Assembly (NCBI GenBank): GCA_964536865.1
Contig: CAZHYN010000004.1
Span: 12,900 to 76,899, forward strand
Length of the DNA: 64,000 nucleotides
Source: an uncultured Planctomycetia bacterium
GTDB taxonomy: Bacteria > Omnitrophota > Gorgyraeia > Duberdicusellales > 4484-171
Direction of reading: 5' to 3'
This document shows positions 26,526 through 32,066 of this stretch, piece by piece (positions within the stretch are counted from its first letter, which is position 1; every line of letters begins with the position of its first letter). Below the pieces are notes generated by a model. It was not told the DNA's origin and did no database searches. It worked only from the letters and a program-made list of their open reading frames with translations. Position numbers and translations under genes: made by a program.

Positions 26526-28889
26526 ATGAAATTTTTCAAGGATAAAGATTTTCTCTTCCCTTTAATAATTTGGTTTATAATTATTTTCTGGTATTTAATC
26601 TTTGCGTATAGTTTTTTTTACCCTTTTCGTATTCGTCTACAGGATAAACTGAATTGCCAGGCATTTTATGTATTTTCTCATCCTCCTTCCTCTGTAAACA
26701 AAGTAGTAATTGTAGCTATTGACTCAGCTTCACGCCAGTATCTTCAGCTTAAATGGCCATGGCCAAGGAGGATTACCGCTCGTCTTCTTCGTAACATTAT
26801 GGAGTTCTCTCCCAAAGTTATAGGATTGGACATTATCTTTGCGGGTAAATCCTCTTCCGAAGATGATGAAGAGTTGCTCAGTGTGTTAAAAAACTATCCT
26901 CATACAGTATTAGCGTATACTCTATCTGAAAAAAGCTGCGAATATCCCTGGGAAGGATTTAAAAGAGTGGCTCCTTCTTTAGGATTCATAAATAAGCCAG
27001 GAGAGAAAGATAGGGTAGTGAGAAGTATCCGTACCTTCTATATAGATAGAGAATGGAGGACGCATTACTCTTTAGATACCCAGATTTTAATTCACTATTT
27101 TAATATTAAAAAAGAAGATATTAAGGTTGAGCTGGCTAAAGGAATTTTCTTAGGAGAGAGACTTTTTGTGCCTTCATCAGGGGGAATAACTCCTCTTAAT
27201 TACTTGGCCCATCCTAGTGATTTTATCACCGTCCCTGCTTTTTTGGTGTTAAATAAGAAAGTCGACTCCGATATATTTAAAGATAAAATTGTCCTTGTAG
27301 GTGCTACCGACCCTTTGATTCATGATGTTTGCTCTACGCCCATAGGAGTTTTCCCAGGAGTAACAGTCATAGCTAACTCCTTGGTAATGATGTTAAGTGG
27401 ACGTTTCCTCTACTATCTTCCTTTAGGAGTAACTGTTCTTCTTTCCTTGGGTGTAGGTATTGGAATTATGATGATTAATAAGAAATTTTCTTTGAGTTTT
27501 TCTTCGCTAATTACTTTTGTAATTTTAATTTTTTCTTATTTTTTACTTCTCTACTTAAGGGCAAAAGATATTCAGATTGACTACTTTACTTTTTTCTTTC
27601 TAGGAGTTTCTGCTTATTTGGTTCCCAATGTATACAAGTATAGCTATGCCATATATATGGGCACTACACTCAAGAACCTGGCTATAAGAGATCCTCTTAC
27701 AGGATTCTACACCTTCCGTTACTTTTCCTTAAAAATTGAGGAGGCATTGAAGGAGAAATCAAAAAGTATAGGATTAGTTATCATTATGTTTTCTAATTAT
27801 AAAAAGCTTTCTCTAAAGTTAAGTTTTGAGCACTTGAAAAGACTGGTTAAGCTACTTTCTAATTTTCTTCAGGTGAGTGTCTCTAAGGAATTTAAGCGGT
27901 TCTTCTTCTCCCGTATTTCTGAAGATTCAATAGCAATAGCTCTTTTAGAAGAAGATAGGGAAAAGATAGAAAAATTTTTAAAAATTATGTTAGAGGAGTC
28001 CAAGCATAAAGAGTTTAAGGTGGAAGATTATTCTGTAAAAGTCTTTTTTAGAGGAGTGATATTCTACAAGAGGAAAGGGATTCGCCTGAGCAGAGAAGTT
28101 TTGCTTTCTAAAATAGAGAGTTTCTTGAGAGAATTCCGCAAAAAGAGTGATGAACTTGCTATTTTGGAATTAGAAGAAAGTAAGGAAGAGACAAGGGATA
28201 CTCTTTTGCCATGGGAAAGTTGGGATTTTTTGATTACTGATCTGGAGGAGAGAAATAAAGAATTAGAGAGGGCATTGAAAGAGACTCTCGATACCAAAAG
28301 AGAGACAGAAGAAGCATATTTTGGGCTAATTTATTCTCTTGTCAAAGCGTTGGAGGAAAAGGATACTTATACTCAAGGACATTCGGAGAGAGTGGCTAAC
28401 TATGCTAAAGCTATCGCTGAAGAAGTGGGTTTAGACGAGGAGGAGTGTGAGTTAATTTACAAAGCAGGACTTTTACATGATATAGGCAAAATTGGCATTC
28501 CTGATTATATTCTCCATAAAAAGAAAGAGCTTACCTCCCAGGAAAGGGAGTTTATAAGAAAACACGAAATAATGAGTGTAGAAATACTTAGGCCTATCAA
28601 AGCCTTCCACCGGTTGCTTCCTATAATTTTGCATCATCATGAGCGTTTCGATGGTACCGGTTACCCTTATGGTTTGAGTGGAAATATGATTCCTCGTGGT
28701 GCTCAAATTTTGGCAGTGGCAGATGCTTTTGATGCTGTAACCTGTGGTAGGGGATATAAGAAAGGAATAAGTTTTGAGGAGGCGATTAGAGAATTAGAGA
28801 ATAATAGTGGTACACAATTTAATCCTGTTTATGTTGAGGCACTGAAGAAGGTAATTAACAGGTCTTTTAAGAATGAAGATTTTTCCTAA
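26526..28889 (+). CDS. CHASE2 sensor, degenerate GGDEF domain and HD-GYP c-di-GMP phosphodiesterase
   Basis: N-terminal CHASE2 region bounded by TM helices. RDPLTG start of a GGDEF-like domain that lacks the GGDEF motif. C-terminal HD-GYP domain (HSERVANYA...LHDIGKIGIP...HHHERFDGTGYPYGL). Confidence 0.85.
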   Translation: MKFFKDKDFLFPLIIWFIIIFWYLIFAYSFFYPFRIRLQDKLNCQAFYVFSHPPSSVNKVVIVAIDSASRQYLQLKWPWPRRITARLLRNIMEFSPKVIGLDIIFAGKSSSEDDEELLSVLKNYPHTVLAYTLSEKSCEYPWEGFKRVAPSLGFINKPGEKDRVVRSIRTFYIDREWRTHYSLDTQILIHYFNIKKEDIKVELAKGIFLGERLFVPSSGGITPLNYLAHPSDFITVPAFLVLNKKVDSDIFKDKIVLVGATDPLIHDVCSTPIGVFPGVTVIANSLVMMLSGRFLYYLPLGVTVLLSLGVGIGIMMINKKFSLSFSSLITFVILIFSYFLLLYLRAKDIQIDYFTFFFLGVSAYLVPNVYKYSYAIYMGTTLKNLAIRDPLTGFYTFRYFSLKIEEALKEKSKSIGLVIIMFSNYKKLSLKLSFEHLKRLVKLLSNFLQVSVSKEFKRFFFSRISEDSIAIALLEEDREKIEKFLKIMLEESKHKEFKVEDYSVKVFFRGVIFYKRKGIRLSREVLLSKIESFLREFRKKSDELAILELEESKEETRDTLLPWESWDFLITDLEERNKELERALKETLDTKRETEEAYFGLIYSLVKALEEKDTYTQGHSERVANYAKAIAEEVGLDEEECELIYKAGLLHDIGKIGIPDYILHKKKELTSQEREFIRKHEIMSVEILRPIKAFHRLLPIILHHHERFDGTGYPYGLSGNMIPRGAQILAVADAFDAVTCGRGYKKGISFEEAIRELENNSGTQFNPVYVEALKKVINRSFKNEDFS

Positions 28890-29481
28890 GACTTTCTTTC
28901 TTTTTTTCTTCCTTCCTTCGTTAATTTTTGGATGCAGTTATCCAATTAAAAACTTAGATTCTCCAGGAGAGATAATAATATGTTTTGGAGATAGTATAAC
29001 CCGGACAGAGGGAATTCCTTTAGAGAAAACCTACCCTGCAATTCTAAGTGAACTTTTACATAGAGAAGTTATAAATGCCGGTGTTTCTGGTGATACAACT
29101 GCCACTGCTCTAAGAAGATTAGAGAGAGATGTTTTAAGGAAGAATCCCTACTTGGTTATCGTGGAGTTAGGAGGCAATGATTTTTTAACTGGGATCTCTA
29201 AAGAAATCACTTTAAGGAACTTGGAAGAGATAATCGTTAAGATTCAAGAAGTGAAAGCTATAGTTGTTCTTTGCGATATAAGCTGTGGTTTCATCCTCTC
29301 AGGGTATAGGAAAGATTTTTACCAGTTGGCTAAGAAGACAGGTGCCATTTTCGTTTCTCAACTACTGGAGGGAATCTTAGATAATCCTTCTGCAAAACAG
29401 GATTATATCCATCCCAATGTTGAAGGTCATAGACTTATCGCTCAAAAAATCTACCAAGTGATAAAGCCCTACCTCAAATAA
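28873..29481 (+). CDS. SGNH/GDSL hydrolase lipoprotein (TesA/arylesterase-like)
   Basis: Lipobox LIFGCS. Catalytic block I IICFGDSIT. Block III GGNDF. DxxH near the C-terminus. Confidence 0.85.
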   Translation: MKIFPKTFFLFFFLPSLIFGCSYPIKNLDSPGEIIICFGDSITRTEGIPLEKTYPAILSELLHREVINAGVSGDTTATALRRLERDVLRKNPYLVIVELGGNDFLTGISKEITLRNLEEIIVKIQEVKAIVVLCDISCGFILSGYRKDFYQLAKKTGAIFVSQLLEGILDNPSAKQDYIHPNVEGHRLIAQKIYQVIKPYLK

Positions 29482-29581
29482 TTAAGGTAAATGTCGGACA
29501 GCAGACTTCTAATAGTTTCCCTTGATTTTAGTTATAAATCTCCAGTTCAAAGAAAAAGTTAATGAATGTGAGGTTAAACCA

Positions 29582-29598
29582 TGCCGAGGGCGGGAGTC
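29582..29598 (-). repeat. Orphan copy of the 3' end of tRNA-Leu, inside a 43-bp direct repeat (29556-29598 and 29907-29949)
   Basis: tgccgagggcgggagtc with the 5' flank aagttaatgaatgtgagRttaaaccatg matches 29907-29949 almost exactly. Confidence 0.8.
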
Positions 29599-29808
29599 AA
29601 GGCACTGAGTGCTTCGCACTATTTTAACCAGTGCCTTCATAGGGACTCTGTCCACTTGAGGCTCGGCTCATAGGAAAAAATCACAGAAAATAACTTCGCC
29701 TCGCTGTCACCCTGAAGTATTATCAAAGAAGATATTGTTAATAATTATTTTTAGAAGGTATTTAAAAAGAATAATGTAGACCCCAATTCTGACTTTAAAA
29801 ACAAAAAG

Positions 29809-29826
29809 TGCCGAGGGCGGGAGTCG
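29809..29826 (-). repeat. Second orphan tRNA-Leu 3'-end fragment (18 nt) with a different flank
   Basis: tgccgagggcgggagtcg is identical to the tRNA-Leu 3' terminus. It is followed by hairpin tcgcc-aaa-ggcga at 29835-29847. Confidence 0.8.
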
Positions 29827-29932
29827 TAACAAATTCGCCAAAGGCGATTTCCCTTATTTGTTCCGACAATACTTTCGTTTCAGAGTTAACTTCTAGCTTA
29901 AAAAAGAAGTTAATGAATGTGAGATTAAACCA

Positions 29933-30016
29933 TGCCGAGGGCGGGAGTCGAACCCGCACAGAGTTACCTCTACCGGTTTTTGAGACCGACGCGTCTGCCA
30001 ATTCCGCCACCTCGGC
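29933..30016 (-). tRNA. tRNA-Leu(CAA), class II with long variable arm; CCA not encoded
   Basis: Hand-folded from the sequence. Acceptor GCCGAGG/CCTCGGC. Anticodon stem TCGGT/ACCGG with loop CTCAAAA. 15-nt variable arm. T arm GCGGG-TTCGACT-CCCGC. Discriminator A. Confidence 0.85.
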
Positions 30017-30185
30017 ATTTACTTTATATTATTATCCTACTCCTATTAGTCTTGCTCCTTAACAACTTCTCTCTTCTATTAACTACACGGGAACAACTAA
30101 ATTGAGCTTCGCTGTAATAACAGCGAAAGTTGTTACCGCCACCTCGGCATTTACTTTATATTATTATCCTACTCCTATTAGTTCT
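30000..30185. repeat. ~49-bp direct repeat (30000-30048 and 30137-30185) copying the tRNA-Leu 5' end plus its upstream flank
   Basis: ccgccacctcggcatttactttatattattatcctactcctattagt occurs twice, 137 bp apart. The spacer contains palindrome cgctgtaataacagcg. Confidence 0.85.
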
Positions 30186-30421
30186 GTCTATAGGATTTTT
30201 TCTATTAACTAATAATAACTACTAAATTAGTCTTTACCTCTTGACGGAGAAGACTATTTTTTCTTGGTCTCTATTTCTTTATTTGTTCCGGGAACTTTAA
30301 AATCTTAGCATTAGCAAAATTCTTTGTCAATTGACAATTTTTCTGTTAGATGATATATTTTAGTTTAAAGTTTCTCCCTAAAGTAGACAGAGCATATAGA
30401 TAGATGAGAGAGGCCGTAGTT

Positions 30422-31170
30422 TCCGCCAAAGGCGGACCCACTTATGAGGGGCGATCCTTGATGGGCCATTTAAAAATAAATAAATTTCTTCTTTGGTCAT
30501 ACTCTAGGGGTGACAGCAAGCCGTGTTTAACTACCTCGGATTTACTTATAGGCTTGCGTCAGAGGGGCAGAGCCCCTATGAGGAGCGTAAGCGACAGGGC
30601 CGTAGTTTCCGCCAAAGGCGGACCCGCTTATGAGCGGGCAGCAGGGAGTAAGTTGTCTGCAACGTTAAGTTGCAGTATTCTTAAATATACAACTTCCTCC
30701 ATTGTTTATGATGTTAAAGATAGGCTGTCTCTTTAAAATAGAAGCTAAAGAAAAGTGATGGGGCCGTAGTTCAGCAGGGAGAACGCTACGCTGGCAGCGT
30801 AGAGGTCAGGGGTTCAAATCCCCTCGGCTCCACCAGTTAGATTGTTAAATTCTCATTTTTAGGTGATATAAATGTTTTTATTAATAGATGGTAATTTTTA
30901 AGGTTTTCCAGTAAAATTGCGGGGCCGTAGTTTCCGCCAAAGGCGGACCCGCTTATGAGCGGGCAGCAGGGAGTAAGTTGTCTGCAACGTTAAGTTGCAG
31001 TATTCTTAAATATACAACTTCCTCCATTGTTTATGATGTTAAAGATAGGCTGTCTCTTTAAAATAGAAGCTAAAGAAAAGAGATGGGGCCGTAGTTCAGC
31101 AGGGAGAACGCTACGCTGGCAGCGTAGAGGTCACGGGTTTCCGCCAGAGGCGGACCCGCCTTTAGGCGGG
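30422..31170 (+). repeat. Four copies of a ~31-nt GC-rich double-hairpin mini-element (30422-30451, 30608-30639, 30933-30964, 31140-31170)
   Basis: Consensus tccgccaRaggcgga-cccgcYtWtRaGcggg. Copies 1-3 follow gccgtagtt, a tRNA-Ala 5'-end mimic. Copy 4 lies inside the T-loop of the second tRNA-Ala. Stem 2 shows compensatory T:A to C:G change between copies. Confidence 0.8.
30760..30835 (+). tRNA. tRNA-Ala(GGC) with G3:U70 identity pair; CCA encoded
   Basis: GGGGCCGTAGTTCAGCAGGGAGAACGCTACGCTGGCAGCGTAGAGGTCAGGGGTTCAAATCCCCTCGGCTCCACCA. Anticodon loop CTGGCAG. T arm AGGGG-TTCAAAT-CCCCT. Confidence 0.9.
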
Positions 31171-31191
31171 CAAATCCCGTCGGCTCCACCA
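31085..31191 (+). tRNA. tRNA-Ala(GGC) second copy interrupted by a 31-nt double-hairpin insertion in the T-loop (possible pseudogene, or an intron-like insertion)
   Basis: Identical to copy 1 through the variable loop. Insert tccgccagaggcggacccgcctttaggcggg sits between T-loop TT and CAAAT. T-stem pair 50:64 changed G:C to C:G, which preserves pairing. Confidence 0.6.
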
Positions 31192-31208: not shown

Positions 31209-32066
31209 TTGTTAAGGTTAGGTGTTCAAGTTTCAATTGCTGGTGGTATCCATTTCTCCGTAGATAGAGCGTTGAAATTAGGGTGTAATGCTATGCAGAT
31301 ATTCTCTCGTAATCCACGGAAGTTTAGAAAGAGTTTTCTAAAAGTGGAAGATATAGAACTTTTTAAAAAAAAGATCAGTGGTTCTTCTATCTTTCCCCTG
31401 GTTATTCATACTCCTTATACCTTAAATTTAGCTACCCCTCAAAAATTCCTTCATTGGATTACTACTAAGGAGTTTATCGCTGATTTAATAGAGGCAGACA
31501 AGTTAGGCGCTCACTACTTAGTTACTCATCCAGGCTGTTATAAAGGAACTACTAAAGAGGGAGGGTTAAATCAAGTAGTAAAGGGTTTAAGGAGAATATT
31601 GAAAAATACTCAAGAGGTAAAGACAGAGATTCTTTTAGAAAATACTGCAGGGGGTGGCACGTGTCTGGGATCTAAAATTTCTCAGTATAGATTCATATTG
31701 GAAAAGTTGGATTTCACTCCCCGGATAGGTATATGTTTAGATACTGCTCATGCATGGTGTGCAGGTTATAGGATAAATACTCACCAAGGTTTAGAAGAAC
31801 TACTTCAAGAGATAGAAAAAGAGGTAGGTATCCAAAGATTAAAACTTATTCACCTTAATGATACCCTTGAAGAATTGGGTTCAAAGAAAGACCGTCATTA
31901 TCATATTGGGGAAGGTATGATTGGGAGAGATGGTTTTTCTTTGATAGTTAACCATCCTTTTCTTAAGAACTTACCTTTTATTTTAGAGACACCTAAAAAG
32001 AACGATAGGGATGATATAAAGAATTTAAATACTGTAAGAGCACTTTATAGAGATGAATTACTCTAA
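31209..32066 (+). CDS. nfo: Endonuclease IV (AP endonuclease family 2)
   Basis: TIM-barrel xylose-isomerase-like fold. ILLENTAGGG. LGICLDTAHAW. 285 aa. Confidence 0.85.
   Translation: MLRLGVQVSIAGGIHFSVDRALKLGCNAMQIFSRNPRKFRKSFLKVEDIELFKKKISGSSIFPLVIHTPYTLNLATPQKFLHWITTKEFIADLIEADKLGAHYLVTHPGCYKGTTKEGGLNQVVKGLRRILKNTQEVKTEILLENTAGGGTCLGSKISQYRFILEKLDFTPRIGICLDTAHAWCAGYRINTHQGLEELLQEIEKEVGIQRLKLIHLNDTLEELGSKKDRHYHIGEGMIGRDGFSLIVNHPFLKNLPFILETPKKNDRDDIKNLNTVRALYRDELL

Follow-up and report, generated by a model that had tools for sequence, protein, structure and literature searches.

A double-hairpin insertion element at a tRNA-Ala locus of an uncultured Omnitrophota bacterium, and its association with partial gene copies and a mini GIY-YIG nuclease

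Among small bacterial repeats, REPINs are intergenic, species-specific sequences of ~100 nt that are moved by a Y1/HUH enzyme, the Rickettsia palindromic elements measure 100-150 bp and are confined to Rickettsia, and the cyanobacterial small dispersed repeats are hairpin-forming mobile repeats of ~21-27 nt with nested and intragenic insertions; for these last we know of no report that ties them to a nuclease gene or to the partial duplication of tRNAs. The mitochondrial double-hairpin elements (DHEs) of Allomyces and Schizosaccharomyces are short, GC-rich and built of two hairpins; they are dispersed, may lie in rRNA genes, lack flanking duplications and occur as identical copies across species (PMC10085805, PMC2800124). 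A further case is SegB of phage T4, a GIY-YIG homing endonuclease that lies in a tRNA cluster and drives segmental amplification (PMC13096335). Here we describe a short double-hairpin element, E, at the tRNA-Ala locus of an uncultured bacterium of the Omnitrophota (assembly GCA_964536865.1, contig CAZHYN010000004.1, positions 12,900 to 76,899 of the forward strand); the window is this whole stretch of 64,000 nucleotides, and coordinates count from its first letter. The segment at 29.5-31.2 kb was probably, though far from certainly, left behind by a selfish-element system directed against structured-RNA genes.

E occurs in the window in four copies, all of them at the tRNA-Ala locus, and in 100 shuffled versions of the window its pattern found no match. 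When one genome of each species was scanned for the exact pattern, a family of at least 120 loci in many phyla emerged, with constant stems, variable loops and the consensus TCCGCC-nnn-GGCGGA-CCCGCC-nnn-GGCGGG. Among the matches listed, E is exactly 30 nt long in 107 of 124 copies, it is preceded by T at -1 in 91 of 122 and by T at -2 in 98 of 122, its 3' flank prefers C or A and then A, and the stem pair that the search pattern left free is G-C in 97 copies, with 6 compensatory variants (A-T or T-A) and 6 G-T pairs besides. Loop 2 is often the reverse complement of loop 1, and such copies also fold as one 12-bp hairpin (-17 kcal/mol); as single-stranded DNA, the E of the window forms two 6-bp hairpins at -13.5 kcal/mol (z = -5.3). 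The hosts are Omnitrophota, many Patescibacteria, Planctomycetota, Kiritimatiellia, Chloroflexota, and metagenome-assembled genomes labelled Gammaproteobacteria or Deltaproteobacteria. Only one of 2.9 million viral contigs carries E, and phages are therefore no evident vector. Sequence strings retrieved no description of E from the open-access literature (only chance matches such as primers), nor did topic searches of that literature on Omnitrophota or the Candidate Phyla Radiation (CPR) together with tRNAs, hairpins or GIY-YIG, or on UPF0213, bring up an account of the system. The E family appears to be previously undescribed, and so do its cross-phylum reach and its coupling to a nuclease.

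The tRNA-Ala locus contains a direct repeat, R, of 218 nt (30597-30814 and 30922-31139), whose copies are 99% identical, are spaced by 325 bp and mismatch at two positions: T at 30756 is A at 31081, and G at 30809 is C at 31134. Both copies read, in this order, tRNA-Ala nt 1/2-12 (ggggccgtagtt; (g)gggccgtagtt), E, nt 13-22 (cagcagggag), a 111-nt leader and tRNA-Ala nt 1-55; E is TCCGCCAAAGGCGGACCCGCTTATGAGCGGG in both (31 nt, 30608-30638 and 30933-30963). Read along the plus strand, the first copy of what we call fragment 2 (nt 2-12, E, nt 13-22; 30597-30648) is followed by leader copy 1 (30649-30759, 111 nt, 93% identical to L125 and L126, two loci of relatives treated below), by the only intact tRNA-Ala(GGC) (30760-30835), by an AT-rich spacer, S, of 85 nt (30836-30920), by the second copy of fragment 2 (nt 1-12, E, nt 13-22; 30921-30973), by leader copy 2 (30974-31084), which has A at 31081 where copy 1 has T at 30756, and by a second tRNA-Ala(GGC) (31085-31191), whose T stem and nfo-proximal flank mark it as the ancestral gene and which is inactivated by a variant of E. 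S begins behind the CCA end of the intact gene and stops exactly at the GGGGCCGTAGTT start of the next fragment; it has no match in the window, in the 194 loci collected or in JGI metagenomes (0 matches). The layout is accordingly R-S-R', with two copies of R around a unique spacer, and Tandem Repeats Finder called no repeat between 28 and 33 kb because unrepeated unique sequence separates the copies. A preliminary description of this locus had seen a tandem duplication of 324 bp in which each unit ends in tRNA-Ala. All the sequence features that it listed are present where it placed them, and the repeat is real, but its period is 325 bp, the spacer keeps it from being a clean tandem, and only the first tRNA copy is intact, the second being split. 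Its leaders do open with a genuine 5' fragment of the same tRNA, and the perfect hairpin that it had pointed out, ctgcaac-gttaa-gttgcag, lies in both of them (30657-30675 and 30982-31000) and scores as terminator-like.

In the second gene the variant E (TCCGCCAGAGGCGGACCCGCCTTTAGGCGGG, 31 nt, 31140-31170) sits between T-loop nt 55 and 56 (GGGTT and CAAAT) with no target duplication, and its removal in silico leaves a perfect tRNA-Ala(GGC). Rfam still gives the interrupted copy a tRNA score of 49.3 bits, while ARAGORN overlooks it because the variant E splits the T-loop; together, ARAGORN and Rfam at its gathering threshold report a single plus-strand tRNA-Ala(GGC), that at 30760-30835. The two genes also differ in their T stem, AGGGG/CCCCT in the intact copy versus ACGGG/CCCGT in the interrupted one, through a compensatory pair at nt 50 and 64. 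Upstream lies a third, more diverged fragment, as the preliminary description had noticed: fragment 3 (30410-30451, plus strand) consists of tRNA-Ala nt 1-12 (gaggccgtagtt, 30410-30421) and a decayed E (30422-30451), and it occupies the place of the original tRNA 5' end after the promoter. Between fragments 3 and 2 stretches X, a filler of 145 nt (30452-30596, plus strand; conserved core 30483-30588).

Relatives of the window allow these events to be put in order. At L128, whose nfo DNA is 73% identical, the conserved promoter stands directly before one clean tRNA-Ala with the T stem ACGGG/CCCGT, the tRNA-Leu is clean as well, and there are no fragments and no E. L126 and L127 (nfo DNA 84%) carry fragment 3 with E, X, fragment 2 with E, the leader and an intact tRNA-Ala (ACGGG/CCCGT) that abuts nfo, and the tRNA-Ala locus of L125 (nfo DNA 98%) is in the identical state; fragment 3 is undecayed in L126 and absent in L128. 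The 218-nt duplication and the T-loop E are absent from L125 and L126. The empty T-loop site reads GGGTTCAAATCCCG in L125, L126 and L128, against GGGTT-E-CAAATCCCG in the window, and the D-stem insertion gives GTAGTT-E-CAGCAGGG in the fragments against an uninterrupted sequence in the resident tRNA. Therefore, the two D-stem fragments are old and the nfo-proximal copy of the window is the ancestral gene, whereas the recent, strain-specific features are the E in the T-loop, the duplicated 218 nt, S and the foreign T arm. Since the two D-stem copies of E share the loop TTATGA and the T-loop copy has other loops, the latter came from another source copy. Taken together, E is a mobile insertion, placed after TT without target duplication; it hit tRNA-Ala three times in this lineage, and the latest of these hits is of recent date, as is the 325-bp repeat. 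In its identity to relatives the locus is a mosaic: its promoter segment is 94% identical to L126 and 67% to L125, which shows that recombination has taken place there. At L125 (575-790), moreover, the tRNA-Leu has the acceptor stem GCCGGGA where the window (29932-30182) has GCCGAGG, and the upstream 5' fragment co-varies with it.

The association between E and broken copies of structured-RNA genes extends well beyond this lineage, E being strongly enriched in truncated tRNA or 5S copies that have an intact one beside them. Some 25 of the 123 copies listed lie in tRNA-derived sequence, and for at least 18 of them the same locus holds an intact tRNA, mostly no more than a few hundred bases away. 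The typical fragment runs from tRNA nt 1-3 to merely 3-10 nt beyond E (nt before and after E: 12+10 in the window, 36+10 in L116, 34+7 in L055, 18+10 in L103, 21+5 in L013), and a mirror form starts 7-9 nt before E and extends toward the 3' end (L019, L085, L064). Only in two copies, that of the window and that of L019, does removal of E give a full tRNA. Because the breakpoint tracks E across many gene types, we argue that insertion and partial duplication are coupled. Arrays of units that contain no open reading frame (ORF) occur at L031, L055 and L103. At L035 (2509-2538 and 2603-2711) the tRNA layout is seen on 5S rRNA: downstream of the 23S gene, a 5S 5' fragment that ends 4-5 nt after E (GAAGTT-E-AAGC) lies ~65 nt upstream of the intact 5S. 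At L103 (4735-4900) a second tRNA-Arg fragment is broken at GCTCAA/TTGG by a larger double hairpin of different sequence, CTCCGAC...GTCGGAG TCCCGAC..AGAGCGTAAGCGAGC..GTCGGGA, at a place where the assembly has a run of N; its loop motif GAGCGTAAGCGA recurs in the window at 30583-30594.

In 11 of 120 loci selected for E, among the matches listed, the stretch from the E-bearing fragment to the intact tRNA holds an ORF of 80-95 aa. These ORFs belong to the Pfam family GIY-YIG (E-value 1e-12), and their profile matches the UPF0213 structures 1zg2 and 1ywl as well as SLX1, a family of structure-selective nucleases with YhbQ and YazA among its members (PMC7017083). To this we added a protein-selected sample of 64 metagenome loci, chosen solely by similarity to three close GIY-YIG sequences. 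A same-strand tRNA is adjacent in 48 of the 64, and in 41 of these 48 a partial copy of that tRNA lies across the ORF, on its other side. Thirty loci are of type A (fragment, ORF, intact tRNA), with E-like hairpins in all; eleven are of type B (intact tRNA, ORF, 3' partial copy), eight of them without E, and in these eight the partial copy still holds an insertion of 13-26 nt near the anticodon loop. Such E-less type-B units, with 13-26 nt inserted in the anticodon loop or close to it, are L160, L177, L182, L183 and L186. A canonical E that lies exactly at position 36/37, in the anticodon loop of a tRNA-Ser fragment, is present in 24 of the 41 closest relatives; in most of the remainder the element is decayed, nested (L135) or reduced to a half (L164, L166). 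Whole units form tandem arrays at no fewer than 10 loci; at L139, a near-perfect 343-bp repeat of fragment, E and ORF precedes the intact tRNA. Across phyla, then, E, partial gene copies, the nuclease gene and tandem arrays are statistically coupled.

Two further observations touch on these units. Defunct tRNA-Ser fragments at L135 (~1417-1470), L150 (~1130-1480), L164, L166 and L148 hold odd forms of E, namely E nested in E, runs of hairpin modules and single 15-nt halves (CCCGCCnnnGGCGGG), and a 15-nt hairpin suggests itself as the basic module of E. In the window, a 3.4-bit match to the C-terminal third of the GIY-YIG profile lies on the minus strand at ~30032-30128, between a tRNA-Leu 5' fragment and tRNA-Leu; the site corresponds to the position of the nuclease gene in type A, and the match may be a decayed remnant or due to chance.

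The preliminary description had attributed the locus to repeated recombination between tRNA copies, mediated by the small element. One part of this proposal stands, for a discrete insertion does lie exactly at the breakpoints; simple recombination as the origin is unsupported on three counts. The two upstream fragments are old, since relatives with no more than 84% identity in nfo DNA have them too; the unique 85-nt spacer and the foreign T arm are beyond the reach of a plain crossover between resident copies; and a truncated copy with E beside an intact gene recurs in at least nine tRNA species and 5S rRNA, in several phyla. This recurrence, often together with a GIY-YIG gene and tandem arrays, argues for a selfish-element system rather than for incidental recombination.

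How such a system might work can be sketched as follows. E would land in a tRNA gene and destroy it; the broken copy could persist only beside a restored one, supplied by a short cassette with whatever part of the gene was missing, and the end product would be a truncated E-bearing fragment, a filler and an intact gene. At tRNA-Ala, two D-stem hits at 12/13 would have produced fragments 3 and 2 long ago, and the recent hit at T-loop 55/56 of the ancestral gene would have been offset by a new upstream copy, made of a 218-nt duplicate of resident sequence, a foreign T arm and the 85-nt spacer, with the 325-bp repeat as the result. In other genomes the filler is a live gene for the ~85-aa GIY-YIG nuclease (UPF0213/SLX1-related), whose breaks may drive homologous, tRNA-guided copying and the tandem amplification of units. 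We infer that the nuclease makes its breaks either in the immediate vicinity of E or at the cognate gene, and that homology-driven repair follows. Repair would copy a cassette in which the tRNA sequence itself serves as the homology arms, which would explain why the duplicated segments start at tRNA position +1, and re-cutting, or unequal exchange between repeats, may lead to arrays; nuclease-driven amplification at tRNA loci has a precedent in T4 SegB (PMC13096335). The fillers of the window (leader, X and S) may be relics of nuclease cassettes, now nuclease-less. More speculatively, E and the UPF0213/SLX1-like mini GIY-YIG protein could be the two parts of a cross-phylum "break-and-heal" gene drive for structured-RNA genes, a proposal to which we assign a low probability. 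E would extrude as a hairpin or cruciform and be the substrate of the nuclease, inactivating the tRNA or 5S gene and marking it for cutting; repair from a cassette with no homology arms other than the universally conserved tRNA sequence would heal the gene and install the nuclease, and repeated cycles would give tandem arrays.

Several points weigh against a selfish-element system of this kind. (i) The small GIY-YIG gene is absent from the window, where the search found UvrC only; leader, X and S hold no convincing nuclease coding remnant, and the best remnant match (3.4 bits) is beside tRNA-Leu, not tRNA-Ala. (ii) A hydrolytic nuclease alone is incapable of strand transfer, and it is not obvious how a catalytic domain of 85 aa would recognise a sequence. 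(iii) Many tRNA-Ser units share ancestry, so that their copies of E are not independent. (iv) The R-S-R' of the window duplicates 218 nt upstream of E, versus 7-9 nt in L019, L064 and L085, three of four comparable units in other genomes. (v) No source was found for the foreign T arm or for S, nor is R-S-R' spanned by any single independent contig. (vi) E also enters protein-coding genes on its own, for which such a system does not account.

As regards these protein-coding genes, 48 of the 118 copies of E listed lie in long stop-free frames, as compared with 70% of random 30-mers from the same loci. About 39 of these 48 are in one phase, which reads SAxGGPAxGG, or PAxGGSAxGG on the opposite strand, and this phase bias in proteins shows that E is translated, not spliced. 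RNA splicing of E, or its interpretation as a tRNA intron (group I or bulge-helix-bulge), was also rejected on its size and positions (31 nt at 12/13 and 55/56) and on the presence of an intact copy nearby; Rfam detects no intron family. A separate observation concerns loci of four divergent patescibacterial genomes (L026, L037, L068, L106), in which E occupies one common site, HGKL-E-K..EK..VM, of a gene that we read by eye as a RecG-like helicase, and is translated as PAxGGSAxGG; its stems there are perfect or compensated (CCCTCC/GGAGGG), and the neighbouring codons have diverged.

The surroundings of the tRNA-Ala gene carry scars of a similar kind. The region is bounded by a GDSL lipase gene (28873-29481) and by nfo (~31209-32066), whose protein has homologues with Omnitrophica or Omnitrophota names; every gene within ~5 kb of the locus is a housekeeping gene, and the GC content of the window is 33-40%. 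On the minus strand, at 29541-30182, tRNA-Leu(CAA) (29932-30017) is accompanied by two 3'-end fragments (29581-29598 and 29810-29826), each of which starts in the T-loop and has ~40 nt of duplicated downstream flank, and by a 5'-end fragment (30136-30182) with a duplicated upstream flank that matches 30004-30050. Its fillers contain other hairpins, none of the E sequence type; one example, AACAAAT..TCGCC-AAA-GGCGA..ATTTGTT at 29827-29866, has an inner stem that is compensated in L125. A paralogue of the core of X (30483-30588, plus strand) lies in the tRNA-Leu scar at 29630-29736 (minus strand); the two structured copies, of ~105 nt, have equal orientation relative to their tRNA, and the core reads CTTCTTTG..ATACT..GGGTGACAG ... 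ACAGAG.CCCTATGA, with a 7-bp stem and several compensatory changes. A covariance model of X, run across 80 sources, gave matches in this lineage only, and X is therefore not general cargo.

The only strong promoter that the promoter scan found here is a divergent sigma-70-like pair at 30302-30359, on both strands, with 11/12 and 10/12 consensus matches, conserved in L125, L126 and L128. Its plus-strand member, TTGACA-17-TATATT at 30331-30359 (11/12), is the ancestral promoter of tRNA-Ala and stands ~50 nt upstream of the clean tRNA-Ala in L128, and its minus-strand member, TTGACA-17-TAAGAT at 30330-30302 (10/12), points toward tRNA-Leu. TTGTCT-17-TATTCT, called promoter-like in the preliminary description, matches 8 of 12 consensus positions and falls under the scan cut-off. 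Rfam, at gathering and at E-value thresholds, recognised tRNA only and no family for E, X or the leader, and a look-up of the 110-aa ORF at 30404-30736 gave no record. A permuted tmRNA at 30808-30929 was considered and rejected: RF04321 scores 32.5 bits, below its cut-off of 47, ARAGORN finds no tmRNA, and the resemblance arises because the T arm and CCA end of tRNA-Ala are followed by a spacer and then by a tRNA-Ala 5' end.

Of the alternatives, the one that fares best makes E an independent hairpin transposon with a preference for TT in loop-forming DNA, moved by an unseen enzyme such as a Y1/HUH transposase (IS200/IS605 or RAYT type); E-bearing tRNA copies would survive thanks to pre-existing spares, made by GIY-YIG cassettes functionally unlinked to E. 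IS200/IS605-type single-strand transposition typically inserts after a short motif and without target duplication. In addition, ~100 copies of E have no GIY-YIG gene nearby, eight type-B nuclease units have no E, and E is present in a RecG-like protein and many others. However, E keeps a consistent distance of 3-10 nt from the fragment boundary, is found in 24 of the 41 closest protein-selected units with remnants in most others, and retains perfect stems while spacers and nuclease diverge to 55-60% identity; even the E-less units keep a 13-26-nt insertion at the same place of the partial copy. We noticed no Y1/HUH transposase (TnpA/RAYT) near any copy of E, whole genomes not having been searched for it. 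An independent transposon is a tentative alternative, to which we give a minor share of probability.

That the locus is an assembly artefact, in which a wrongly resolved loop or the joining of two strains gave rise to the 325-bp repeat and the genome really has a single unit as in L125, seems to us unlikely. In favour of an artefact, the assembly breaks inside the region in each of three others that share the flanking genes in identical form (L122-L124), and every independent short-read contig ends there as well; S was not found in JGI metagenomes, and the sister strain L125 has one unit. The break points themselves speak for the repeat. The ENA contig (k=141) begins at 30940, no more than 1 nt away from 31081 minus 140, and the Logan contigs (k=31) begin at 31104, exactly 31134 minus 30; contigs thus break where k-mers lose the bases that distinguish the copies of R, and both variants of R must therefore co-occur in those three samples. 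In addition, S has R sequence on both sides, which requires R-S-R on one molecule, the T-loop-interrupted tRNA-Ala beside nfo is reproduced in L122-L124, and comparable tandem units have been assembled in many unrelated metagenomes. The tRNA-Ala copy number given here rests on this assembly together with the break-point inference from k-mers.

We find it still harder to believe that the fragments are att remnants of deleted tyrosine-integrase elements into which E inserted later and independently. tRNA genes are classic integration sites, and the 3'-end fragments of tRNA-Leu with their duplicated flank are attR-like. Yet there is no integrase, the neighbours within ~5 kb being housekeeping genes; the tRNA-Ala fragments are 5' ends that lie 110-190 nt apart, with no kb-scale island; and the gene between the copies, where there is one, encodes a GIY-YIG nuclease and not a recombinase. 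Furthermore, E lies 3-10 nt from the fragment boundary in most of ~19 cases and in many tRNA types, a constancy that independent later insertion would not give. Least probable of all is that fragments, X and leader form a selected functional 5' leader (a processing or decoy RNA), with the duplication raising tRNA-Ala dosage: three lineages keep the arrangement, the identity of X and leader is 87-93% as against 84% for nfo, the stems of X show compensatory changes and one promoter must read through everything, but the arrangement is missing in L128, whose locus looks fully functional, the second gene copy is broken and hence dosage is not raised, non-coding identity to L125 (90-93%) is below that of coding DNA (97-98%), and many other, unrelated tRNAs show this layout around fillers that are themselves unrelated.

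If the selfish-element system proposed here is real, a 30-nt sequence with invariant stems moves within and between deeply divergent, mostly uncultivated phyla, among them Omnitrophota, the CPR (Patescibacteria), Planctomycetota and Kiritimatiellia, and rewrites their tRNA, 5S rRNA and protein genes. It would account for the breaks of short-read assemblies at tRNA loci in these genomes, for genes that tRNA predictors miss or count wrongly at such loci, and for the origin of recurrent Gly/Ala/Ser/Pro decapeptide insertions in the proteins. It would also assign a concrete role, open to testing, to the mini GIY-YIG proteins of UPF0213/YhbQ, a large orphan family, and would provide a bacterial counterpart of the mitochondrial DHEs, whose mode of mobility has been a question since the 1990s. 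The break-and-heal proposal, if true, would add a new class of bacterial mobile element, in which tRNA genes are portable homology arms and a 30-nt hairpin is the recognition handle.

How does this system compare with those already described? E falls outside the tRNA introns, the integrase att remnants, the permuted tmRNAs and the REPINs in the strict sense. With REP/REPIN sequences and IS200/IS605 it shares its hairpins, its position 3' of a short motif and its lack of target duplication, and an inverted doublet can form one long hairpin as theirs does; unlike REPINs, E has 30 nt, stems that are constant across phyla and a place inside genes (48 of 118 in ORFs). The cyanobacterial small dispersed repeats differ in sequence and hosts, and the Rickettsia palindromic elements in that E is 30 nt long and spread across phyla. 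In Allomyces, an endonuclease insertion in atp6 with a duplicated gene end has reportedly been described by the same group as worked on the DHEs.

With T4 SegB and the fungal mitochondrial endonuclease genes that displace a gene end, the units described here have in common a GIY-YIG gene adjoining tRNA genes or lying within them, a duplicated piece of the target gene by which the target stays functional, and segmental or tandem amplification. As for the two features of a GIY-YIG cassette, a target-adjacent ORF is seen in related loci and not in the window (UvrC only), and a partial target duplicate with an intact gene is seen both in fragments 2 and 3 of the window and in 41 of 48 loci. In contrast to free-standing GIY-YIG homing endonucleases, the proteins here are ~85 aa long, consist of the catalytic domain only and are closest to UPF0213/SLX1, and their genes are chromosomal, in free-living or episymbiotic bacteria, with a hairpin at the breakpoint. 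The DHEs are known from mitochondria only whereas the hosts of E are bacteria, and there are no reports for them of enrichment in partial tRNAs, of in-frame insertion in proteins or of pairing with a mini GIY-YIG. Judged by form and not by sequence, however, the DHEs are the closest of all, since E too consists of two adjacent GC-rich hairpins, dispersed through an AT-rich genome without target duplication, and in behaviour the closest are the free-standing GIY-YIG homing endonucleases together with the Rickettsia palindromic elements.

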